Positions 45,122 to 59,064 of a stretch of DNA of 64,000 bases are shown here, in pieces. Position numbers and translations under genes: made by a program. Each line of letters begins with the position of its first letter. Position 1 is the first letter of the stretch. Source of the DNA: Actinomycetota bacterium (GTDB lineage Bacteria; Actinomycetota; JAICYB01); assembly GCA_035640475.1 (NCBI GenBank), contig DASQWC010000023.1, positions 4,186-68,185 on the forward strand. The letters are read 5' to 3'. The notes below the pieces were generated by a model. It did no database searches and was not told the origin of the DNA. It saw only the letters and a program-made list of their open reading frames with translations.

Positions 45122-45148
45122 GTTTCCGATTGTTACGCGTGCGTTAAC
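45122..45148 (-). promoter_or_regulatory. candidate nitrogen-regulator operator, GTTAAC-n16-GAAAC, upstream of amt (43703..45058)
   Basis: The minus strand reads GTTAAC GCACGC GTAAC AATCG GAAAC, ending 63 nt upstream of the amt ATG. The same GTTAAC-n16-GAAAY arrangement occurs upstream of the second amt gene. Confidence 0.35.
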
Positions 45149-45567: not shown

Positions 45568-45960
45568 CTACTGCATTCGTGAGAGCACGAACACCAACAG
45601 CACAACGATGGGGACGAACAGTACGAACCGCAGACCACCTTCTCGCAGCGTTCGCTTCACGCCGATCGTTGGATCTGCACCGGCGTCGGTACGTGCCCTG
45701 CGAGATCCGATCCGGCCAAAGAAGATCGCTGCGTATGACGTCCCCAAGGCAACAAGGAAAGCAACCGGTGGGGCATGCAATGCAGACAAGACGACGACCG
45801 CAACGACGAACACGAGCGGTGCGGCTATGCGCGCAACCACGTTGCGCGCATAGCCCGGGTGGGCGCTGCGTAGGTGACGCGCGCGTTCGCGCGCGCCACC
45901 TACGCGAGCTCCACACAGCTCGCAGCGATCGGCCTCCAACCGCTCGGCTGTCTGGGCCAT
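45568..45960 (-). CDS. small membrane protein with N-terminal C2H2-type zinc-finger motif
   Basis: The ATG directly abuts the amt stop (TAGATG). CELCGARVGGARERARHLRSAH gives C-x2-C-x12-H-x4-H, followed by three hydrophobic helices. The glnK SD lies 13 nt downstream. Confidence 0.6.
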   Translation of the reverse strand: MAQTAERLEADRCELCGARVGGARERARHLRSAHPGYARNVVARIAAPLVFVVAVVVLSALHAPPVAFLVALGTSYAAIFFGRIGSRRARTDAGADPTIGVKRTLREGGLRFVLFVPIVVLLVFVLSRMQ

Positions 45961-47613
45961 CTAGACCTCCCGTCCGACGCGGACGGCTCCCGTTGTCGCC
46001 ATCTCGTCCAGCGCCTTGGCGATGGCCGGCGCCTCGAGGTCCGGGTAGGCGTAGACGCCCATCTCCGGAAGGTCGAGACCGATGTCCTCATCCTCGGGCT
46101 TGCTCCGGATGCCCTGGATCGCGTGCTGGAGCTTGAAGAAGATCCAGCCGACGCCACCACCGAAGACGACGATCGTCAGACAACCGATCAGCTGAGCGAC
46201 CAGCTGCCCGCCGTCCCCATAGAACAGGCCCGTCACGGTGCCGTCCACCCCATTCCATCCGGCGCCGTACGTACCGTCGGCGAACAGGCCGAGCGCGATG
46301 AGGCCCCACAGACCGTTGATGCCGTGAACCGAGACAGCACCAACCGGGTCATCGATCTTCGCCCTTCGCTCGAAGAACAAGATCGACTCGATCACGAGCA
46401 CGCCGGCGATCGCACCGATCAGCAGCGCGATTCCCGGTGAGACGAACGCGCAAGGCGCAGTGATGGCAACCAACCCGGCGAGCATCCCGTTCGCGGACAT
46501 GCCTGGATCGGGCTTGCCGAACCGTGACTTTCGCATCGCCCAGAGCATCGCCACGAACGCTCCGGTGGCCGACGCGAGCATCGTGTTCACAGCAACGACG
46601 GAGATCCGCAGGTCCATCGACGAGAGCGACGAACCGGCGTTGAACCCGAACCAGCCGAAGGCGAGGATGAACGTTCCAAGGATTGCCAGCGGCAGGTTGT
46701 ACGCGGGAAGCGTGTTGGGCGTGCCGTCGGCGTTGTACTTGCCCCTGCGAGGTCCGATCACCGAGGCACCGGCGAGCGCAAGCCAGCCGCCCATGCCATG
46801 AACGACCCCGGAGCCGGCGAAGTCGACATAGCCGTGCCCGAAGCCCGACTTGGAGCCGAGCTGTGACAGCCAGCCGCCGCCCCAAGCCCAGTTGCCGAAG
46901 ACCGGGTAGAAGAACATCGAGACGACAAAGCCGTAGACGACAAAGGCTGACCACTTCCAACGCTCGGCCATAGCTCCGGTGACGATCGTCGCCGTCGTAT
47001 CCATGAAGACGAGGTTGAACAGGAAGTGCGTCATCACACCGACGTCGTAGATGCCGCTAAAACCGAAGCCCTTCGTCCCCAGAATGTTCCAGCCACCGAC
47101 CGTGACGGCTGTGCCGCTCAGCGCCTTGGCACCTCCGAGCAATCCGATACCGCCGTAGCTGCCGAACATGAAGGCGTAGCCCACCAGGAAGAATCCGATG
47201 ATGCCGATGCCGTAAATCATGAAATTGGTCATCAACACATGCGCAGAGTTCTTCCGCTGGCAGAAGCCTGTCTCGACGAGCGCGAAACCCGCCTGCATGA
47301 ACATGACGAGGAACCCGGCGACGAGCGTCCACGTGAAGTTGATGCCGATCTTGGCCTTTCCTACCGTGTCCGCGACCTGCTGGAAGGCGTCCTGGTCGTA
47401 GTCGTCGGGCGCCTCCGTGACCGCATTTCCTTCGTCGTCGGTGACGACGTCACCCATGGTGCCGGTCATGTCGCCACACGGGTCTCCGGCGTCCGCTGCC
47501 GAAGCGATCTTGCCGCCGCACGCCTCTTGCGCATGCGCGGCCGCCCCGCCGAACAAGAGCAGCCCCCCGGCGAACAGTGCCAGCAACCAGCCGGCACAAA
47601 TACGTCGGCTCAC
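45961..47613 (-). CDS. amt: ammonium transporter (second copy, divergent clade) with acidic Cys-containing N-terminal extracytoplasmic extension
   Basis: The GTG start follows GGAGGTG. Signal peptide plus ~60 aa Asp/Gly-rich segment. Amt core: FLVMFMQAGFALVETGF, DFAGSGVVHGMGG, AVSVHGINGLWG. Long C-terminal tail. Confidence 0.92.
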   Translation of the reverse strand: MSRRICAGWLLALFAGGLLLFGGAAAHAQEACGGKIASAADAGDPCGDMTGTMGDVVTDDEGNAVTEAPDDYDQDAFQQVADTVGKAKIGINFTWTLVAGFLVMFMQAGFALVETGFCQRKNSAHVLMTNFMIYGIGIIGFFLVGYAFMFGSYGGIGLLGGAKALSGTAVTVGGWNILGTKGFGFSGIYDVGVMTHFLFNLVFMDTTATIVTGAMAERWKWSAFVVYGFVVSMFFYPVFGNWAWGGGWLSQLGSKSGFGHGYVDFAGSGVVHGMGGWLALAGASVIGPRRGKYNADGTPNTLPAYNLPLAILGTFILAFGWFGFNAGSSLSSMDLRISVVAVNTMLASATGAFVAMLWAMRKSRFGKPDPGMSANGMLAGLVAITAPCAFVSPGIALLIGAIAGVLVIESILFFERRAKIDDPVGAVSVHGINGLWGLIALGLFADGTYGAGWNGVDGTVTGLFYGDGGQLVAQLIGCLTIVVFGGGVGWIFFKLQHAIQGIRSKPEDEDIGLDLPEMGVYAYPDLEAPAIAKALDEMATTGAVRVGREV

Positions 47614-47685: not shown

Positions 47686-47712
47686 ATTTCGTCGAAATTG
47701 CGCGACGTTAAC
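47686..47712 (-). promoter_or_regulatory. candidate nitrogen-regulator operator, GTTAAC-n16-GAAAT, upstream of amt (45961..47613)
   Basis: The minus strand reads GTTAAC GTCGCG CAATTTCGAC GAAAT, ending 72 nt upstream of the amt GTG. Same spacing as the site at 45122..45148. Confidence 0.35.
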
Positions 47713-47750: not shown

Positions 47751-47767
47751 GTTAACCCAGACGAAAC
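47751..47767 (+). promoter_or_regulatory. GlnR-box-like site GTTAAC-n6-GAAAC upstream of the winged-helix/antiporter genes
   Basis: GTTAACccagacGAAAC matches the actinobacterial GlnR half-site pair gTnAc-n6-GaAAc, 45 nt upstream of the ATG at 47812. A weaker cTTAAC-n6-GAAGT follows at 47783..47799. Confidence 0.35.
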
Positions 47768-47811: not shown

Positions 47812-48123
47812 ATGCAAGTGAGAGTCGGCGCCGGTGATTCGCTTGCCGTCGGTCGGCTCACAATCGAGCTCGACGCGTATCGAGCTCACCTCGCAGATCG
47901 GGCTCTCGTCCTGACGCCCGCGCAGTTCGACCTGCTCGCCTACCTCGTGCGCAACCGAGACCGCGTCGTCACTCGGGATGAGCTCGCCGTCGCCGGGCGC
48001 CTCGAGCACATGCATTCGGTCGACGTGACACTGTCCTCGCTGCGGCGCGTCCTCGGAGCCGGATTCATCCGCAACGTGCGAAACCGCGGTTGGATCATCG
48101 AGCCCGACGCGGTGAGTTCCTGA
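47812..48123 (+). CDS. stand-alone OmpR/PhoB-type winged-helix DNA-binding protein (no receiver domain)
   Basis: 103 aa. LAVGRLTIELDAYRAHLADRALVLTPAQFDLLAYLVRNRDRVVTRDELA ... VDVTLSSLRRVLG ... IRNVRNRGWII follows the Trans_reg_C pattern. Confidence 0.8.
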   Translation: MQVRVGAGDSLAVGRLTIELDAYRAHLADRALVLTPAQFDLLAYLVRNRDRVVTRDELAVAGRLEHMHSVDVTLSSLRRVLGAGFIRNVRNRGWIIEPDAVSS

Positions 48124-48125
48124 GT

Positions 48126-50867
48126 ATGGAAACCGGCGCGCTGCTCTTACGTCTCGCGCTTCTATTCGTCGTCGCCCGCCTCGCCGCCGAAGTCGCAGAG
48201 CGACTGCATTTTCCCGCCGTGCTCGCCGAGATCGGCGCCGGAGTTCTACTCGGTCCCTCCCTCTTCGGCTGGATCGAACCGAAGGAGCCACTGAGCTTCA
48301 TTGGCGAATTGGGGGCGATCCTCCTGCTGCTCGAAGTCGGACTACATATGGATCTTGCCGACTTGGGCCGTGTGGGTCGCTCGGCCATGCAGGTCGCGTG
48401 GATCGGCATCCTCGTTCCGCTGGCCGCGGGTTTCGCGGGGATGCGAGTCCTGGGCATTGCGACGCCGGTTGCCCTCTTCCTCGCGGCCGGAATCACTGCA
48501 ACGAGTGTCGGCATAACTGCTCGCGTCTTTGCCGACATGCGCGCGCTCACGAGCACCGAGGCGCAGACCGTGCTCGGTGCAGCCATTGTGGACGACGTGC
48601 TCGGCCTCTTGATACTCACTGTGGTTACTCGGGTTTCGTCCGGCGGCCGCATCCAATTTGCGTCGATTGCGGGCGTCACCGTTGCAGGGATCTTGTTCGT
48701 CGTGGGCGCGACGGCCCTCGGCGCGATCCTCATACCTCGTATCTTCGGGCGATTCGTCGGACGCTCTCGCATCGAGGGCACGCTGATCGGCGCGGCCGTG
48801 GCCTTCGGACTGTGCATGGCCGGTCTTGCCGCCGCCGTGAAGCTTGCTCCCATCGTCGGAGCGTTCGTCGCCGGCGTCGCCTTGAGCCGGACCCCGCAAC
48901 GCGACGAGCTGCGCCGCCGGCTCGCTCCCGTCGGTCACCTTTTCGTGCCGGTCTTCTTCCTGCTCATCGGGGCCGAGACGCACGTCCGTACGCTGGCTTC
49001 ACCGCGGGTGCTCGCGGTGGCCGCGGTGCTGGCCGCTATCGCCGTCGTCGGCAAGATCGTGTCGGCGCTCGGTGTCACCCGCGGCGGTGGCGATCGCATG
49101 CTCATCGGCATCGGGATGATTCCTCGCGGCGAAGTCGGCTTGGTGTTCGCAACTCTCGGCTTGTCGAGCGGCGTGCTGAGCGCCCCGCAGCACGCAACGT
49201 TGCTCGCCGTAGTTCTCGTGACAACGCTCGCCGCTCCGCCGTGGCTTCGCCGGCGCATCGATCGCAGCCGTCGTGAGGCCTTTGAAAGTGTCGAGGTTGC
49301 CGAGCCGCCGGACGGATGGCTCCTCGTGACCGATGACGAGGTCGAGTTGCGTGCCGAGCCTTCTGTCGGGCTTGCACACCGCATCGCGCTGGACGCAGCG
49401 CTGTTGTGCGCACAGCGTCGCCCCGGTCCCCGAATCCTCAACTGGCTGTCCGGCGTGCCGGCGCGCACGGCGACATGGGACGCGCAACTCTCACGCCGGT
49501 TCATGGCGCTGCTGCGCGATGGCAATACCCGTTCCTGGCGCTTTCTCGAGGTCACCGGAATGCTGCAGGTACTCCTCCCCAAACTGGAAATTGCTCTCGC
49601 ACGGCGCGCTCACGATCCATTCGATCTCGATCCGGCCTCGGCACTGCGGTGGGATGAGGTCGATGAGCTCAAGCGGATCGTCTCCGACCAGGACGATCCG
49701 GCGAGCGCGCGGTGGCCGGGTGTCGACCAGGAAGCCGTCCTCTTGGCGGCACTCGCACGAAGTGCTTTCGGTCCGGACGCAGCCGCGGAGGCGAGAGCCC
49801 TCGCAACATACGTCGGCTTCAAGGACGACCGGGCGTCGCTGGTCGAGTTTCTCGTTGCCGAGCGGGATCTCTTGCCCGCCGCCGCCGCTCGCATGTCGAT
49901 GGGAACCGAGGAGTCGGTGCTCGCGCTCGCCACGCACATCGGCGATCGCTCGCGCTGCGACGCCTTGTACGTCCTCGCCGCGGCCGGCGAAGAGGAGCCG
50001 ACCGCGCGTAAGCGCCTCGACGAGCTGCGGGGGCTTGTTTCGTCGGCGCTTGCCTCACCGGAGCTGACGAGCGCCGGAATGGGCGTTCTTGAAGAGCGCC
50101 GGCGACAAGTCGTCGAGCTTCTTCCGCGGACGGCCAACGTCGCCGTGCAACATCTGCTCGAGGCGGCTCCGCGCCGCTACTTGCTCGGGCAAACGCCGCA
50201 AGCGATTGCCAAGCACATCCAAATGCTCGACCCGCCTCCGACGAGAGGCGAGGTTCGAATCCGGCCGGAACCCGACCCCGAGCACGGCACATGGACGATC
50301 TTCGTTGCAGCCCTCGACCGTCCCGGCGCCCTGGCAGCAATCGCCGGCGCGCTGACCCGCTGCGAGATACCCGTCCTCGAAGCGGCGATCACGACGTGGC
50401 CGCACGGTCTTGCCGCGGATGTTTTCCGTGTGTCGGCACCCGCAACCACCGATTGGGACGCGGTTCGAAAGGCAGCGACGGAGGCGTTCGCCCATCACGG
50501 TCGCAACGGAAAGCCCGCGAGGATCCCAGGTCAGCTCGAGATCGACAATGCCGCATCGCCGTGGCACACAATCGTCGAAGTCCGGGCCGAGGACAGATCT
50601 GGTCTGCTCTATCGCGTTGCCGAAGCTTTCAGTCGTGCGGACCTGCGGATCCACCACGCAAACGTGTCCACGGTCGATGGTGTCGCCGTCGACACGTTCC
50701 TCGTGACGGACCGCGACGGTCACAAGCTCGGGCATCGCGAACAGGGCGCCCTTCGTCTGTCATTCGAAGGGAAGCTCGGCGCACGCTGGACTCCGGCCCG
50801 GATGTGGCGCCGAGCGACGCCGCAGCCCGAGGCCACGGGCAAGCCCGGCAAGCTGCTCACCCCATAG
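48126..50867 (+). CDS. CPA2 cation:proton antiporter fused to a GlnD-like regulatory tail (degenerate HD domain + two ACT domains)
   Basis: The ATG lies 2 nt after the wHTH stop. The first ~395 aa form a Na_H_Exchanger-type membrane domain. The C-terminal ~480 aa are collinear with GlnD (55793..58351) from its pre-HD region to the end, including both ACT domains. Confidence 0.85.
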   Translation: METGALLLRLALLFVVARLAAEVAERLHFPAVLAEIGAGVLLGPSLFGWIEPKEPLSFIGELGAILLLLEVGLHMDLADLGRVGRSAMQVAWIGILVPLAAGFAGMRVLGIATPVALFLAAGITATSVGITARVFADMRALTSTEAQTVLGAAIVDDVLGLLILTVVTRVSSGGRIQFASIAGVTVAGILFVVGATALGAILIPRIFGRFVGRSRIEGTLIGAAVAFGLCMAGLAAAVKLAPIVGAFVAGVALSRTPQRDELRRRLAPVGHLFVPVFFLLIGAETHVRTLASPRVLAVAAVLAAIAVVGKIVSALGVTRGGGDRMLIGIGMIPRGEVGLVFATLGLSSGVLSAPQHATLLAVVLVTTLAAPPWLRRRIDRSRREAFESVEVAEPPDGWLLVTDDEVELRAEPSVGLAHRIALDAALLCAQRRPGPRILNWLSGVPARTATWDAQLSRRFMALLRDGNTRSWRFLEVTGMLQVLLPKLEIALARRAHDPFDLDPASALRWDEVDELKRIVSDQDDPASARWPGVDQEAVLLAALARSAFGPDAAAEARALATYVGFKDDRASLVEFLVAERDLLPAAAARMSMGTEESVLALATHIGDRSRCDALYVLAAAGEEEPTARKRLDELRGLVSSALASPELTSAGMGVLEERRRQVVELLPRTANVAVQHLLEAAPRRYLLGQTPQAIAKHIQMLDPPPTRGEVRIRPEPDPEHGTWTIFVAALDRPGALAAIAGALTRCEIPVLEAAITTWPHGLAADVFRVSAPATTDWDAVRKAATEAFAHHGRNGKPARIPGQLEIDNAASPWHTIVEVRAEDRSGLLYRVAEAFSRADLRIHHANVSTVDGVAVDTFLVTDRDGHKLGHREQGALRLSFEGKLGARWTPARMWRRATPQPEATGKPGKLLTP

Positions 50868-50938: not shown

Positions 50939-51973
50939 ATGGGCCCGCGTTCACGAGCTGCTTCTCGAGGATCGGCGCTCCTGGCGTTCCTCCGGACCGA
51001 GCAAGCGGCCGGGATGTTGCTCCTCTTGGCCACGATCTCGGCGCTCGTCTGGGCCAACACCCTTTCTGGTTACGAGTCCTTCTGGACAGCTCACGTCGGG
51101 ACGAAGGAGCTCAGAGATTGGGTGAACGACGACCTCATGGCGTTGTTCTTCTTTGTCGTTGGGCTCGAGATCAAGCGCGAGCTCGTCGTCGGAGAGCTGC
51201 GCGACCGCCGCACGGCCGCCCTGCCTGCACTGGCGGCAGTGGGCGGGATGCTGGCTCCGGCGCTGCTCTATCTCGCGTTCAACGCGGGACGGCCGGGCGC
51301 GCCGGGCTGGGGCATCCCGATGGCGACGGATATCGCATTCGTCGTCGGTACGACGGCGTTGCTCGGCAGCCGCGCTCCGCAGCGCCTGCGGCTGTTCCTG
51401 CTCACGCTGGCGATCGTGGACGACGTCGGCGTCATACTGATCATCGCCCTCGCTTATTCCGGCGGAACCGTGCATCCGACGCTGATCGCCGTCGTGCTCG
51501 CGCTGCTCGTGCCGGCCAAGCCCGTTCTCGGTCGGCGGGTTCTCGAAGCGCTCGAGAACCGGTTGCATCCGGTGGCCTCGTTTGTTGTCGTCCCGGTCTT
51601 CGCCCTGGCCAACGCGGGCGTCATCGTGTCGTCCTCGTCGCTTCGCAGTGCCGTCCACTCAACGGTGTTCTGGGGCATCGTCGCCGGGCTTGTCCTCGGC
51701 AAGCCCCTCGGCATTGTGGGCGCGTCACTTCTCGGCGTGCGAACGCGATTGGGTCGGTTGCCAGCCGGAGTCAGCCGTCCGAACCTCGTCGGTGGAGGTG
51801 CGCTCGCCGGTATCGGCTTCACGGTGTCGTTGTTCATTGCGACGCTCGCCTTCACCGACGCCACGCTCGGCACGGATGCGACCTTCGGCATTCTCGTCGG
51901 GTCCGCGGTGAGCGGGATCGTGGGTACGGGCCTGCTCTTGGTCCAGGAGCCGCGGAGCGTCAGGCGGTCTTGA
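50939..51973 (+). CDS. nhaA: NhaA-family Na+/H+ antiporter (short variant)
   Basis: AAGGAG SD. WVNDDLMALFFFVVGLEIKREL, GWGIPMATDIAF, LAIVDDVGVILIIAL and PVFALANAG are present, but at 344 aa the protein appears to lack the segment between ...ALxY and ...GVHxTL. Confidence 0.85.
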   Translation: MGPRSRAASRGSALLAFLRTEQAAGMLLLLATISALVWANTLSGYESFWTAHVGTKELRDWVNDDLMALFFFVVGLEIKRELVVGELRDRRTAALPALAAVGGMLAPALLYLAFNAGRPGAPGWGIPMATDIAFVVGTTALLGSRAPQRLRLFLLTLAIVDDVGVILIIALAYSGGTVHPTLIAVVLALLVPAKPVLGRRVLEALENRLHPVASFVVVPVFALANAGVIVSSSSLRSAVHSTVFWGIVAGLVLGKPLGIVGASLLGVRTRLGRLPAGVSRPNLVGGGALAGIGFTVSLFIATLAFTDATLGTDATFGILVGSAVSGIVGTGLLLVQEPRSVRRS

Positions 51974-54953: not shown

Positions 54954-55796
54954 TTGCACGTGGACGACGACTGGATCCAGCGCGCTCAGGGTGACCTGGT
55001 GACGCGGCCGGTCGTGATGTGGACGGCGGGGCTGTACGACGAGCTGCCGGAATTCATCGACCACACGATCGTCGACATCGCGACCGGACTCGGCCGCAAC
55101 GGGTGGGGCGCCGCACTGTTGATGCGCGACGTCTCCGGCTGCATGGTGTCCGTCGAGAAGGGCACTATTCCTCTCGATCAGCACGCGCGATTCATCGATC
55201 ACATGGCAAAGCTCCACGCACACTTCTGGGGCTTCCGCGACACGTACGGTCTCATGCCGAGAGGCAACCTCTACCTCATGTTCTCGTCACTCATGACCGA
55301 TTACGAGGCCGGGCACGGCGGGCCGGGCGGCGTCCCAGACATGGCCGGCGCGGGGTGGGAGCGCATGGCCGACCTTGCGCCCGGGCTGGCCGAGATCGTC
55401 TTCCCGCTTCTGCGCGACCCGTGGCCGCTGGTCGACGCTCAGGCCGCCGGGCCGCAGACGCTGGTCCACAGCGACTGGAAGGCCGGCAACCTCGGCTCCC
55501 ACGACGATGGACGGACCATCCTGCTCGACTGGGCCTTCCCCAGCGAAGCACCCGGGACGGCCGACCTCGGGTGGTACCTGGCGGTGAACTGCGATCTCCT
55601 CCCGCATTCCAAAGAGGAGACGATCGCCCTATATAAGGAGTCGCTCGAGCGTGAGGGCATCCAGACCACAGGCTGGTGGGAAGCGCAGCTCGAGCTTGCC
55701 CTGCTCGCTCAGGTCGTGCTTCTCGGCTGGTCGAAGACGGGCGACGAGCTGGCCTGGTGGGAGGAGCGGGTACCCCGGGCGCTTCGCTTCCTTTAA
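54954..55796 (+). CDS. phosphotransferase (APH-like) family protein; true start probably upstream near 54798-54816
   Basis: LVHSDWKAGNLG catalytic loop and LLDWAFPSEAPGTADLGWYLAV. The same frame is open from 54747 and encodes a kinase N-lobe (SELERVVIGGERYVLKHL) with no ATG/GTG/TTG before 54954. Confidence 0.7.
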   Translation: MHVDDDWIQRAQGDLVTRPVVMWTAGLYDELPEFIDHTIVDIATGLGRNGWGAALLMRDVSGCMVSVEKGTIPLDQHARFIDHMAKLHAHFWGFRDTYGLMPRGNLYLMFSSLMTDYEAGHGGPGGVPDMAGAGWERMADLAPGLAEIVFPLLRDPWPLVDAQAAGPQTLVHSDWKAGNLGSHDDGRTILLDWAFPSEAPGTADLGWYLAVNCDLLPHSKEETIALYKESLEREGIQTTGWWEAQLELALLAQVVLLGWSKTGDELAWWEERVPRALRFL

Positions 55797-58351
55797 GAAC
55801 GATCTCTGGGCTGAAGTGCCCGGTGGAGACTCTCCTCGATCCGCCGGACGTGCTCCGCGCTTGTGACCCGGTGACCCTCGAGATCGTGGACGTAGAACAC
55901 GTCGACCACCTCCACCCCGTAGGTCGCGATCTTCGCAAACGAGAGGTCGCACCCCACGTCGACCAGCGCTTTCGTGATCATCCGAAGGAGGCCGAGCCTG
56001 TCCTCGGTGTGAACCTCGACGACCGTGTGGGTCTGGGACGCGTGGTTGTCGACGACGACCTGGAGGCTGGCGCCCGATCTGGTGCCCATGCGCCGGCGCC
56101 TGGATTGGGCGGCCTTCCGGCCGAGCTGGTCGTCGAGGTCGAGGTGCCCGTCCAACGCCGAGGCGATGTCGCGCCGCACCTGCTGCCAGCGATCCTCGGG
56201 AACCGAGCCGTGCGCCCCGCGGACGCGGAAGACTTCGATGGCAACACCGTCCGAGCGCGTGTAGATCTCGGCGTCGTGTACGTCGATCGACCGAAGGGCA
56301 AGCACGCCGGCTACGGCTGCGAACAGGCCCGGCCGGTCGTGCGCGACCACGATGAGCTCGTCGGCTTCCTCCAGCCGCTCCTCGGACGTCCGCACCTCAC
56401 CCGGGCCGAGGGGTTCGCGCAGCAGACGAAGCTGGCGAAGTGCCGCGTCGACCTCCAGACCGGCGAGCCATGCCTCGGGCATCGGTCCGACGACGCGCTC
56501 GGCCTCCTCACGTGACAACTCGAGCGTTTCGGCGAGCGCTCCGAGCTGCTGCGACATCTCCCCGGGCGCGTCCGGCGCGCCTTCGAGACGGTGCTTCGTC
56601 TTGGCGTAGAGCTCCCGCACGAGTGAGGCCCGGAAGGACGACCATGCCTCGGGGCCCGTCGCGAGCGAATCCGCACGCGTGAGCAGGAACAACATGGCCA
56701 GACGCCGGATGTCGCCGACTCGCTCTACGGTCTCGTCGATCGTCCGCGCATCGTTGAGATCCCTGCGCGTCGCCAGCGAGACCAACGTCAAGTGCTCACG
56801 GACGAGAAACTCGACGTCGTCGACCTTGGACGGCTCGAGTCCGATGCGCCGCGCCGACTCGACGGCGAGGCGGCTCCCCTGCGCGGAGTGATCGCCTCCT
56901 CGTCCTTTTCCGATGTCGTGGAGCAGTGCGGCGAGGAATAACGGCTGGTGGTCGTCGACGTACGACCAGGCATCTTTTTGGTCGCGCTCGTCGGAGGAGC
57001 GGCTGGCGGCGAGCTCGGCGACGGCGGCGAGCAGATGCCGGTCCACCGTGTACCGGTGATAGAGATCGCGCTGTGGAAAACATCTGATCGGGTCCCACTC
57101 GTGCAAGAGGGCGCCGAGCAGTCCGGCGAGATCCATTGCTTCAAGCGCGCGAACGCCGCCCGCGCCCGATTGAAGAATGTCGAGGAATACCTCGCGTGCG
57201 TCGGAAGTCCATACGAGCTCCGGCGATTGCACCAAGTCCTCGTGCAAACGGTTGAGTGCGCCTCGTCCGATCGGCGCATCGCGTCGAACCGATGTAAGGA
57301 ATACTCGCAACCAACCCGCGGGATCGTCGCGCGGGTGCGTCACCGCCGTAACCTCTAGTCGTCCGTCGACGAGCACACATCCTTCGCCCGCGGTCTCCGT
57401 GTCGGTCGAACGCCAGCGACGACGACGCTGGTGTGTGATGCGATCCCAGAAGCTCGTCACGACCGCGTCGACTTGGCGCGCGTGTGCGTAGAGCTCCTGC
57501 ATCACGCGATCGGCGGGCCCGGCGCCGTTCCCTTCGTATCCGAACCGGCGCGCGAGGTCGTCCTGCTCGGCGAGATACAGCTGGTCCTGGTGCCGAGCCG
57601 TCAGCAAGTGCAGACCGATCCTGAGACGAAGCAGAAACGTTCGTGCCGACGCGATGAGGTTTCGATCGAGCTCGCTCAGGTGCCCGGAGGCAACGAGACC
57701 CTCGAGACCGTCGCCACCCGGCAACACCTTCGACGCCCACAGGATCGTATGAATGTCTCGCAGCCCTCCCGCTGAGTCGCGGATGTTCGGCTCGAGCAAG
57801 TGACCCGCGTGTCCGTAGCGCAGATGCCGGTCCGACGATGACTTCACGAGTTCCCTGAAGAAGGAGGCCCGTCCCCGGTCGATCCGCCGGCGTACCGATC
57901 CATCGAGATCGGCGAACAAACCGCGATCGCCGGACAGGAAGCGAGCATCGATTACCGCGCACACCTCGTCGATTTGATTGAAGTTTCGAATGACGTCACG
58001 AGGTTCGCGGATCCTGTCGCCGAGCTCGCGTTTCGAGTCGTACAGCGGGTACATCACCTCGCGGCTCAACGCGGTGACGTCCGCGCTCGGCCAGCCCCGA
58101 TAGAGCAGCAATAAGTCCAGGTCGGAGGCGGGAGCCAGCTCGCGCCGTCCGTAGCCCCCGAGAGCCAGGAGGGCGATTCCTTCCTGCGGACGGCCCGAAC
58201 GCGAGAGCGCGTCATCGAAGACGCCGACGACGATCGCATCGACGTCGTTGGAGTGCGCAACAACGATGTCGTCCGACGACATACCCGAGTCGCCGAGCGA
58301 CTCGACGCGGCCACGAGCGCGGGCGAATGCTTCGCGGATCTCGACGGTCAC
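55793..58351 (-). CDS. glnD: [protein-PII] uridylyltransferase/uridylyl-removing enzyme
   Basis: NTase motif LALGGYGRRELAPASDLDLLLLY, HD domain (YHRYTVDRH ... LLHDIGKG) and two C-terminal ACT domains. GTG start at 58351. Confidence 0.92.
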   Translation of the reverse strand: MTVEIREAFARARGRVESLGDSGMSSDDIVVAHSNDVDAIVVGVFDDALSRSGRPQEGIALLALGGYGRRELAPASDLDLLLLYRGWPSADVTALSREVMYPLYDSKRELGDRIREPRDVIRNFNQIDEVCAVIDARFLSGDRGLFADLDGSVRRRIDRGRASFFRELVKSSSDRHLRYGHAGHLLEPNIRDSAGGLRDIHTILWASKVLPGGDGLEGLVASGHLSELDRNLIASARTFLLRLRIGLHLLTARHQDQLYLAEQDDLARRFGYEGNGAGPADRVMQELYAHARQVDAVVTSFWDRITHQRRRRWRSTDTETAGEGCVLVDGRLEVTAVTHPRDDPAGWLRVFLTSVRRDAPIGRGALNRLHEDLVQSPELVWTSDAREVFLDILQSGAGGVRALEAMDLAGLLGALLHEWDPIRCFPQRDLYHRYTVDRHLLAAVAELAASRSSDERDQKDAWSYVDDHQPLFLAALLHDIGKGRGGDHSAQGSRLAVESARRIGLEPSKVDDVEFLVREHLTLVSLATRRDLNDARTIDETVERVGDIRRLAMLFLLTRADSLATGPEAWSSFRASLVRELYAKTKHRLEGAPDAPGEMSQQLGALAETLELSREEAERVVGPMPEAWLAGLEVDAALRQLRLLREPLGPGEVRTSEERLEEADELIVVAHDRPGLFAAVAGVLALRSIDVHDAEIYTRSDGVAIEVFRVRGAHGSVPEDRWQQVRRDIASALDGHLDLDDQLGRKAAQSRRRRMGTRSGASLQVVVDNHASQTHTVVEVHTEDRLGLLRMITKALVDVGCDLSFAKIATYGVEVVDVFYVHDLEGHRVTSAEHVRRIEESLHRALQPRDRS

Positions 58352-58443: not shown

Positions 58444-58827
58444 TTACTTCTTCCGCCTCCTCGGTCGCTTCATAGCGACGTCGGGAGCAGCCGCCTTACG
58501 GCGCCTCCGGCGCGCGGGCTTCTTGCGAGCGGCCGCCTTCTTGCGAGCGGGCTTACGCTTCGCAGCCTTCTTCCGTGCTGGCTTGCGCTTCGCAGCCTTC
58601 TTACGCGCGGGCTTCCGCTTCGCAGCCTTCTTCCGTGCTGGCTTGCGCTTCGCCGCCTTCCTGCGCGCTGGCTTCCGCTTCGCGGCCTTCTTCCGCGCGG
58701 GCTTACGCTTCGCCGCCTTGCGAGCGGGCTTGCGCTTCGCAGCCTTCCTTCGCGCGGGCTTCTTGCGTGCAGTCGACTTACGTGCAGTCGACTTGCGACG
58801 CGATCGCTTTGCCGCCTTACGTGGCAT
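58444..58827 (-). CDS. histone H1-like, Lys/Arg/Ala/Pro-rich repetitive basic protein
   Basis: The ATG at 58827 follows GAAGGAGGGAGG. 127 aa made almost entirely of (A)AKRKPARKK(A) decapeptide repeats. Confidence 0.7.
   Translation of the reverse strand: MPRKAAKRSRRKSTARKSTARKKPARRKAAKRKPARKAAKRKPARKKAAKRKPARRKAAKRKPARKKAAKRKPARKKAAKRKPARKKAAKRKPARKKAAARKKPARRRRRKAAAPDVAMKRPRRRKK
58551..58757. repeat. tandem 30-nt coding repeat (7 units, one of 27 nt) inside the basic-protein gene
   Basis: Units of GCTT(A/G/C)CGCTTCGC(A/C/G)GCCTTC(T/C)T(C/A/G)CG(T/C)GC(T/G)G at 58551, 58581, 58611, 58641, 58671, 58701 and 58728. Units 1 and 3 are identical over their last 24 nt, which suggests a 60-nt higher-order period. 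Confidence 0.9.
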
Positions 58828-59064
58828 CCAGTTCACCTCCCTCCTTCGATCAGATGACCTCGAGTACGCAACACACCTGCACGTACCCACTTATGAGGCC
58901 GTTGATTACCATAGCCGCAAGTCGTGCGCGTGTGAAGGGTTTAGTGCACCGTTTGTCAAGCACGTTGCAACGCTGCAGATGCGCAGATCACACGCAGTAC
59001 TGACGTAGATTGCGTGTGGACGAAGTGTGGATCGTTGTTGCGTCGCGAATGAAATGTCGACGCG

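Follow-up and report, generated by a model that had tools for sequence, protein, structure and literature searches.

We describe here a fusion gene found in a 64,000-nucleotide stretch of DNA from an Actinomycetota bacterium (assembly GCA_035640475.1, contig DASQWC010000023.1, positions 4,186 to 68,185 of the forward strand), which as a whole we call the window. The gene is complete, lies on the plus strand at 48126..50867 and encodes a protein of 913 amino acids (aa) plus stop, in which a NapA-like antiporter domain is followed by a long tail that we assign to GlnD. The CPA2/NapA core is a well-understood elevator-type antiporter with solved structures, and GlnD serves Proteobacteria and Actinobacteria as the primary glutamine sensor in nitrogen control. 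Two amt-glnK units lie next to the fusion gene on the minus strand, in the order glnK_a-amt_a and then glnK_b-hyp130-amt_b. A divergent intergenic region of 198 bp separates amt_b from a plus-strand series composed of a winged helix-turn-helix (wHTH) gene, the fusion gene and nhaA, and a genuine glnD gene (55793..58351, minus strand) is located 5 kb beyond the latter two. A preliminary description of the locus had noted both the amt-glnK units and the resident glnD, and both are present.

The reading frame of the fusion gene is unbroken from either of two starts, TTG at 48090 and ATG at 48126, to position 50867, and its base composition is even across the junction between membrane domain and tail. 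The identical 913-aa protein is encoded in three independent assemblies (JGI 3300039397, ENA ERZ27258771 and ENA ERZ924394), on two contigs of ~0.5 Mb and one soil contig of 12.9 kb, which excludes an assembly join; gene callers chose ATG 48126 as the start in all three. Searching 5.8 billion proteins, we identified at least 120 full-length homologues (~900 aa, 44-79% identity), all of them combining Na_H_Exchanger and ACT domains. In one-genome-per-species data, 151 genomes contain a relative of the tail; host taxonomy and locus counts were obtained for the best 80 of these, and in 77 of the 80 loci the antiporter domain is fused in frame directly upstream of the tail, the rest being broken contigs or out-of-frame assemblies. 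Unusual fusions can be chimeras, and the antiporter and tail halves are out of frame in three of the 80 loci (L006, L043 and L055, of which L006 and L055 bear the MFD isolate prefix). Nothing else favours an artefact, and given the observations above we attach virtually no credence to either an assembly join or a frameshift-fused gene pair. The continuous open reading frame (ORF) reported in the preliminary description is therefore real.

The hosts among these 80 genomes are all metagenome-assembled genomes (MAGs), almost all from Actinomycetota and mostly from the class Acidimicrobiia, with three labelled as Acidobacteriota/Acidobacteria. None of the retrieved names belongs to a cultured host, all being MAGs with generic annotation. 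An exhaustive HMMER search with the tail only recovered 139 clusters (at the 50% identity level) at E<=1e-30, consisting either of ~900-aa proteins in which the tail spans ~390-890 or of shorter fragments, and the first true GlnD appears in this search at ~1e-31. In these 139 clusters the tail occurs essentially only behind the NapA-type antiporter. We looked for other architectures bearing the tail among hits of intermediate length, and those checked are N-terminally truncated copies of the same fusion; one tail-bearing protein of 768 aa (P0232) has an N-terminus with no assignment.

Pfam and NCBIfam hold no dedicated model for the antiporter-GlnD-tail architecture, and our search of the full-text literature found no description of a CPA2/NapA-GlnD/ACT fusion, in agreement with the preliminary description, which knew of no such transporter and had suggested looking for it in other genomes. 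Full-length members are labelled in their source databases only as 'cation:proton antiporter' or 'KefB / ACT-domain protein'. A 397-aa fragment of the family (P0270, in the cluster of P0117) is labelled in IMG as '[protein-PII] uridylyltransferase'. This constitutes an annotation hazard: since the two halves of the fusion are named inconsistently, GlnD counts in metagenomes could be inflated.

The membrane domain (aa 1-385; 48126..49280, plus strand) matches the Pfam family Na_H_Exchanger (PF00999) over residues 15-373 with an E-value of 1.9e-60. Its best match by sequence among PDB entries is NapA from Thermus thermophilus (4bwz, 5bz2 and 5bz3; E ~1e-63), to which it can be aligned end to end (residues 7-383 against 7-380 of the 386 residues of NapA, 38% identity), whereas KefC is found in the same search at 2e-7. 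When the AlphaFold2 model was compared with known structures by Foldseek, the top match was inward-facing NapA (5bz2), with a template modelling (TM) score relative to the target of 0.92 and a root-mean-square deviation of 2.5 A. The Pfam match and the structural comparison place the domain in the NhaA-type fold of 13 transmembrane helices with two crossed unwound helices. Proteins with the 13-helix fold of NapA and KefC have their C-terminus in the cytoplasm, where the RCK domain of KefC also lies (PMC11150392), and the tail of the fusion protein should therefore be cytoplasmic as well.

The aspartate pair D156-D157 (48591..48596, plus strand), which is aligned to D156/D157 of NapA and forms the ion-binding motif, is invariant in all 116 fusion family members, as are T126, S127, K310, R334 and E336. 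K310 corresponds to K305 of NapA, and both V128 and the ATSV motif of the unwound helix are present. The aspartate pair combined with the conserved lysine is the signature of electrogenic exchangers, and every one of the 116 members carries it. An ND or DD motif marks Na+/H+ exchangers, and a QD motif together with a threonine, where NapA has a valine, marks K+-selective Kef/KefC proteins (PMC11150392); the fusion protein has DD with V128 and neither the QD motif nor the Thr127-type K+ coordination of Kef. Because the ion site is invariant and has this composition, the core looks catalytically competent and, by signature, appears to be of the NapA-type Na+(Li+)/H+ kind. Therefore, we conclude that it is a NapA-type, probably electrogenic monovalent cation/H+ antiporter, for which Na+(Li+)/H+ is the most likely exchange.

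These results modify the preliminary description, in which the membrane domain was called an ordinary CPA2 domain of the KefB/C kind. Its assignment to CPA2 stands, as the Pfam match indicates, and the likeness to Kef does not. The Kef class was rejected on the PDB E-values and the DD motif given above, on the NCBIfam scores of the fusion protein (63.5 bits against a cutoff of 804 for KefB, and 49.7 bits against a cutoff of 752 for KefC), and on the absence of an RCK domain: Pfam detects no TrkA_N/RCK match in the fusion protein, and the region behind the core is GlnD-like instead. The suggestion that the protein carries K+ or NH4+ likewise finds no support here, as the ion site is that of Na+/H+ exchangers and not that of KefC. 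The tail had also been viewed as standing in place of a KTN domain. Since NapA has no C-terminal domain, it is more apt to say that the tail was added to a NapA-type core than that it took the place of a KTN domain.

The tail (aa ~386-880) is collinear with GlnD from just past the PF08335 domain of GlnD to its C-terminus. Residues 453-878 of the fusion protein match positions 376-843 of the 850 in the NCBIfam GlnD equivalog profile TIGR01693 (E 2.8e-34), with a score of 118.5 bits that falls below the cutoff of 519.4; the resident GlnD scores 644.3 bits. In a BLASTP comparison the fusion protein and the resident GlnD share 30% identity over 389 aa (E 4e-24), and a profile of ten tails compared with GlnD by hhalign yields a probability of 99.8% (E 4e-30) over 418 columns, in which tail positions 64-492 correspond to GlnD 377-832. 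The MAFFT alignment shows that collinearity reaches back to GlnD ~320, directly past its PF08335 domain (164-301). Neither the nucleotidyltransferase (NTase) part nor the PF08335 part of GlnD has a match in the fusion protein in Pfam or NCBIfam, the TIGR01693 alignment beginning only at profile position 376. By these alignments the tail is a GlnD derivative that lacks the NTase and PF08335 domains. The collinearity with the resident GlnD and the missing NTase had both been proposed in the preliminary description, all of whose matching segment pairs were recovered here, and the profile match to TIGR01693 together with a Pfam ACT match (E 2.2e-11) contradicts the possibility that the tail is unrelated to GlnD and ACT proteins.

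An AlphaFold2 model of the full-length protein, based on a 116-sequence alignment, has a predicted local distance difference test (pLDDT) value of 88.5 and a predicted TM-score (pTM) of 0.61; for the tail alone the values are 86.9 and 0.77. The tail is modelled as a beta-hairpin (399-408), an all-helical region (414-701) and two ACT domains (ACT1, 710-789; ACT2, 803-880). A sequence search found no GlnD structure in the PDB, and Foldseek gave weak matches for the tail model, namely a class-II tRNA nucleotidyltransferase for the helical part (3wfp, E 4e-4, TM 0.33-0.40) and assorted ACT proteins for the remainder. The assignment to GlnD is accordingly based on sequence and profile comparisons, which support it strongly.

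Along the plus strand, the N-terminal part of the tail (aa ~394-493; 49305..49604) is collinear with GlnD ~320-430 in the MAFFT alignment and is modelled with pLDDT >90. It consists of the beta-hairpin (GGWL..VEL.AEPP) and of helices that include an RSWRFLEVTG motif, and its residues R469 and W471 are invariant. This part is followed by the former HD domain, which in GlnD carries the uridylyl-removing (UR) activity (aa ~494-625; 49605..50000), by a helical linker with a conserved APRRYLL motif that is collinear with the region between HD and ACT1 in GlnD (aa 626-705; 50001..50240), and by ACT1 (aa ~706-790; 50241..50495) and ACT2 (aa ~803-880; 50532..50765).

As stated in the preliminary description, the HD signature is substituted, and all three motif positions of the H..HD..D metal site are in fact replaced. 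In place of the first histidine motif of GlnD (YHRYTVDRH) the fusion family has a conserved RR..DPFDLDP, in which D497, P498, F499, D502 and P503 occur in at least 100 of the 116 members. LLHD of GlnD has become LARS or LILD at the former HD pair: the histidine position is occupied by R in 63 members, L in 31, A in five, I in five and S in three, and by histidine in none of the 116, and the aspartate is retained in 48. The last aspartate position of the former site is Ala, Glu or Gly across the family. Pfam HD matches the resident GlnD and has no match in the fusion protein. From these alignments and residue counts, the HD site of the tail is catalytically dead family-wide, and because the NTase and PF08335 domains are absent and the metal ligands of the HD site are lost, neither transferase nor removing activity should be possible.

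The two ACT domains are kept, again as had been proposed. Pfam ACT matches the fusion protein at 815-864, within ACT2, with the E-value given above, and ACT_ACR9_3rd matches at 9.6e-7. ACT1 aligns with ACT1 of GlnD and with the ACT domains of Rel/RelA, its modelled secondary structure is beta-alpha-beta-beta-alpha, and both domains have the ACT fold in the AlphaFold2 model. Across the 116 members, the loop between beta1 and alpha1 is maintained in ACT1 (D731-R-P-G734-x-L736) and in ACT2 (D823-R-x-G826-L-L828), where F858 is also conserved. Mean column identity is 0.55-0.65 in the tail versus 0.67 in the membrane domain. The tail is thus nearly as conserved as the membrane domain, which indicates that it is under selection and represents a functional pseudoenzyme module, not decaying sequence.

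Gene neighborhoods were counted in 56 related loci with at least 2.5 kb of sequence on each side of the fusion gene, and wHTH genes and promoter motifs in 72 loci. The divergent neighbor amt_b (45961..47613, minus strand) encodes an ammonium transporter of 550 aa (Pfam Ammonium_transp, E 1e-105) and is of the Amt type found with the fusion gene in related genomes. An Amt gene directly adjoins the fusion gene in 36 of the 56 loci (29 on the same strand; 17 downstream and 19 upstream) and lies within 8 kb in 40. PII genes are found within 8 kb in 13 loci and true GlnD in ten. We considered NhaA as a conserved downstream partner and rejected it, as it is present in only three of the 56 loci, and the GCV_T, CysS and WhiB neighbors are common only to the four or five closest relatives. 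As the other neighbors in the window are not conserved, the association with Amt is not simple inherited synteny. To our knowledge the pairing of amtB with glnK is near-universal, and an Amt gene beside the fusion gene that is mostly without an adjacent glnK is thus unusual. Among the loci that combine several of these genes, one reads amt-glnK-glnD-wHTH-wHTH-fusion-amt-wHTH on a single strand (L086), another fusion-amt-hyp-glnD (L085), and a third nhaA-fusion-..-amt-hyp-wHTH (L084); the first is similar to the amtB-glnK-glnD operon context of Actinobacteria (PMC4285133).

The gene immediately upstream of the fusion gene (47812..48123, plus strand) encodes a stand-alone OmpR-type winged-helix protein of 103 aa (Pfam Trans_reg_C, E 5e-11). 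Its stop codon is followed by 2 nt and then by ATG 48126, a spacing that makes co-transcription and translational coupling of the two genes probable. In 41 of the 72 related loci the fusion gene is directly preceded on its own strand by a homologous wHTH gene, whose product is ~165 aa in most of them as compared to 103 aa in the window. The consensus of the actinobacterial GlnR box is gTnAc-n6-GaAAc (PMC3561978). An exact GlnR-box-like motif, TTAAC-n6-GAAAC, is found at 47752..47767 (plus strand), in the divergent promoter region of amt_b and the wHTH-fusion pair, and a second one with one mismatch is located upstream of amt_a (45132-45147, minus strand). They are the only two such matches in the 64 kb, and both fall in amt promoter regions. 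Further TTAAC half-sites are seen at 47709 and 47786. In the related loci the pattern TnAC-n6-GAAAC occurs 64 times, against ten in shuffled sequences, and in 30 of the 72 loci it is present in the 750 nt that precede the fusion gene, at a density of 0.556/kb compared to 0.027/kb elsewhere (~20-fold). Loci without Amt also have the motif upstream (L020, L028, L041, L047 and L070). Given this enrichment, Amt-less loci included, the fusion family behaves like genes that belong to a nitrogen (GlnR-type) regulon, and the link to nitrogen and ammonium genes drawn in the preliminary description from a single locus is conserved. The wHTH protein may be a mini-GlnR-like regulator of the fusion operon. 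A scan for sigma-70 promoters and terminators around the fusion gene found nothing over background.

We favour, with somewhat more confidence than doubt, the reading that the tail is a sensor of nitrogen status that gates the NapA-type exchanger. The tail would act as an allosteric sensor whose likeliest ligand, bound by the ACT pair as in GlnD, is glutamine, and it would open or lock the transporter core as the RCK tail gates KefC. The fusion gene, a putative member of a GlnR-type nitrogen regulon that is usually co-transcribed with wHTH and often with Amt, would then serve to keep cation/proton exchange in step with the uptake and assimilation of ammonium. The activities of GlnD are switched from a single glutamine site (PMC4285133), and its response to glutamine depends on the ACT domains (Zhang et al. 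2010, as cited in PMC11190351). An ACT domain of the GlnD/ACR type confers glutamine activation on an unrelated enzyme (PMC11190351), and the C-terminal RCK domain of KefC inhibits transport by contacting the core (PMC11150392). The combination of a glutamine site and an ACT requirement in GlnD, a portable ACT domain and locking in KefC therefore leads us to favour a glutamine- or nitrogen-gated Na+/H+ antiporter. We hold glutamine specifically as the gating ligand with less confidence than nitrogen gating in general, as it is drawn from the biology of GlnD; what the tail binds, in which direction it regulates, which cation is carried and what purpose the exchange serves in the cell are all points that we infer.

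Several considerations weigh against this reading. ACT domains bind many different small molecules, and mutagenesis is the only means by which the glutamine site of GlnD has been mapped. Textbook physiology offers no evident connection between Na+/H+ exchange and nitrogen status, and assimilation of NH4+ produces an acid load that a 2H+:1Na+ exchanger would increase, not relieve. About 30% of the loci (16 of 56) have no Amt within 8 kb. AlphaFold2 leaves the geometry of the tail relative to the core unfixed, its pTM being low despite the high pLDDT. Finally, the strong conservation of RR..DPFDLDP suggests that the former HD region has a function of its own, beyond that of the ACT pair. This motif could represent a retained binding surface, and the tail might accordingly be a docking module for the PII protein GlnK and no small-molecule sensor at all: the dead HD domain would still bind the T-loop of GlnK in its modified or unmodified form, and the state of GlnK would switch the antiporter in a manner comparable to the plugging of AmtB. 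The HD domain of GlnD carries UR activity on PII (PMC4285133), and glnK and glnD are both encoded in the window and in several related loci. However, PII genes occur within 8 kb in only 13 of 56 loci, the NTase domain is absent and conservation of the former HD region does not exceed that of the ACT pair, and we consider docking of GlnK unlikely.

The Amt gene that adjoins so many of the fusion genes, mostly with no glnK of its own, also admits a different substrate, in line with the suggestion made in the preliminary description: the membrane domain could move NH4+ (or K+) and serve as a nitrogen-gated ammonium/H+ relief valve partnering the adjacent Amt. Amt adjoins the fusion gene in 36 of 56 loci and PII is nearby in only 13, and movement of NH4+/K+ has been reported for some CPA2 members, AmhT of Bacillus pseudofirmus among them. 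We nevertheless find this quite unlikely, as the ion site is identical to that of NapA (DD, V128, K310) with none of the QD/Thr signature of KefC, and it would be futile to co-express import and export of one ion without tight gating. The role of the tail could also be structural or lie in oligomerisation, or its ligand could be a nucleotide or an amino acid other than glutamine that has nothing to do with nitrogen, the amt context then reflecting only shared regulation or inherited synteny. ACT is a generic ligand-binding and dimerisation module, the fold matches in the PDB including SerB, aspartate kinase, threonine deaminase and Rel, and the 16 loci with no nearby Amt tend to lie beside leucine-biosynthesis and hydantoinase-like genes. 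Yet the link to Amt holds at only 33-57% tail identity, where the other neighbors in the window are not conserved, GlnR-box-like motifs are found upstream in Amt-less loci too, and the tail derives specifically from GlnD and not from a generic ACT protein, all of which makes such a role highly improbable in our view.

A more specific proposal, which we offer as very unlikely, is that in Acidimicrobiia the tail is a self-contained nitrogen receptor, for glutamine or, via the dead HD domain, for adenylylated GlnK, and that the NapA-type valve works with an 'orphan' Amt that has no GlnK. If this were true, the fusion protein would represent a second, previously unknown coupling of ammonium uptake to ion and pH homeostasis, and would offer the sensor half of GlnD as a free-standing module of natural origin.

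Compared to known systems, the fusion protein matches NapA (CPA2, electrogenic; 4BWZ, 5BZ2, 5BZ3) over the entire membrane domain, but NapA ends past its last transmembrane helix at 386 aa, whereas the fusion protein runs for a further 528 residues that are predicted to be cytoplasmic. With KefC and KefB it shares a CPA2 core followed by a large cytoplasmic C-terminal domain, ligand-binding in Kef and predicted to be so here, while differing from them in its distant sequence, its DD motif, the lack of RCK/KTN and an unrelated regulatory domain. Relative to GlnD, the tail keeps the pre-HD helices, the HD scaffold, the linker and both ACT domains, and differs in having lost the NTase and PF08335 domains and the HD metal ligands and in being joined to a transporter, in a genome that keeps a genuine GlnD. 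The match to ACT_ACR9_3rd relates the ACT domains to the GlnD/ACR type found in plant ACR proteins and in the alpha-amylase AMA2 of Chlamydomonas, where such a domain on an unrelated effector mediates glutamine activation (PMC11190351); here, unlike in AMA2 and ACR proteins, the effector is a membrane transporter, the whole C-terminal half of GlnD is kept and the ligand is a predicted one. The AmtB-GlnK system resembles the arrangement proposed here in that nitrogen status would control membrane transport from within an amt locus, with the difference that the sensor is covalently fused and not a separate trimeric PII protein, and that the target is a cation/H+ antiporter and not an ammonium channel.

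An antiporter with a cytoplasmic regulatory domain is familiar, whereas a GlnD-type regulatory module and a link to the nitrogen regulon are new. The fusion would add a class of regulatory domain for CPA2 antiporters beside RCK/KTN. The fusion protein presents the C-terminal, glutamine-sensing half of GlnD excised and with its enzyme site inactivated, a natural minimal system in which the ligand and the signal transmission of the GlnD sensor half could be studied. It also suggests that, in the abundant uncultured Acidimicrobiia of soil and freshwater, ammonium uptake may be tied to Na+/H+ (or pH) homeostasis in a way that can be tested.

Several features of the surrounding genes were observed in addition. 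The ~165-aa form of the wHTH protein has an N-terminus (VVLVRWPEE..PRLLLV..EDWIRLPA.DRDVRARV) that looks, on visual inspection, like a degenerate receiver domain and has no Pfam match; the 103-aa protein of the window lacks a receiver domain, and extra wHTH copies flank amt in L084 and L086. The product of amt_b has an N-terminal extension of ~95 residues ahead of its Pfam domain. Between amt_b and glnK_b, hyp130 (45568-45960, minus strand) encodes 130 aa with no Pfam match, in which an N-terminal zinc-finger-like motif (C-x2-C ... H-x3-H) is followed by what by eye are three hydrophobic helices. It is found after amt_b by tblastn in L007, L009 and L011, and unannotated genes of 123-138 aa occupy the same place in L084 and L085.

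Downstream, nhaA (50939-51973, plus strand) encodes a NhaA-type Na+/H+ antiporter and begins 71 nt past the fusion gene, which places two families of Na+/H+ antiporter in tandem. Its start differs between gene callers (319 vs 344 aa), and in L084 nhaA lies directly upstream of the fusion gene. In the Amt-less loci L023, L028, L041, L045, L047, L052, L070 and L084, the fusion gene tends to adjoin hydantoinase/oxoprolinase-like genes (MRVGVDTGGTFTD...) and leucine-biosynthesis genes (leuC/leuD/leuA-like), with Pfam support for both only in L084 (Hydantoinase_A/B, Aconitase). No riboswitch or other known RNA was found in the window. By glnD, an ORF of 161 aa (58523-59008, plus strand) opens with the imperfect repeat AAFLRAGLRF AAFFRAGLRF AAFLRAG; it has no Pfam match and is kept, as judged by tblastn, in the four closest loci.

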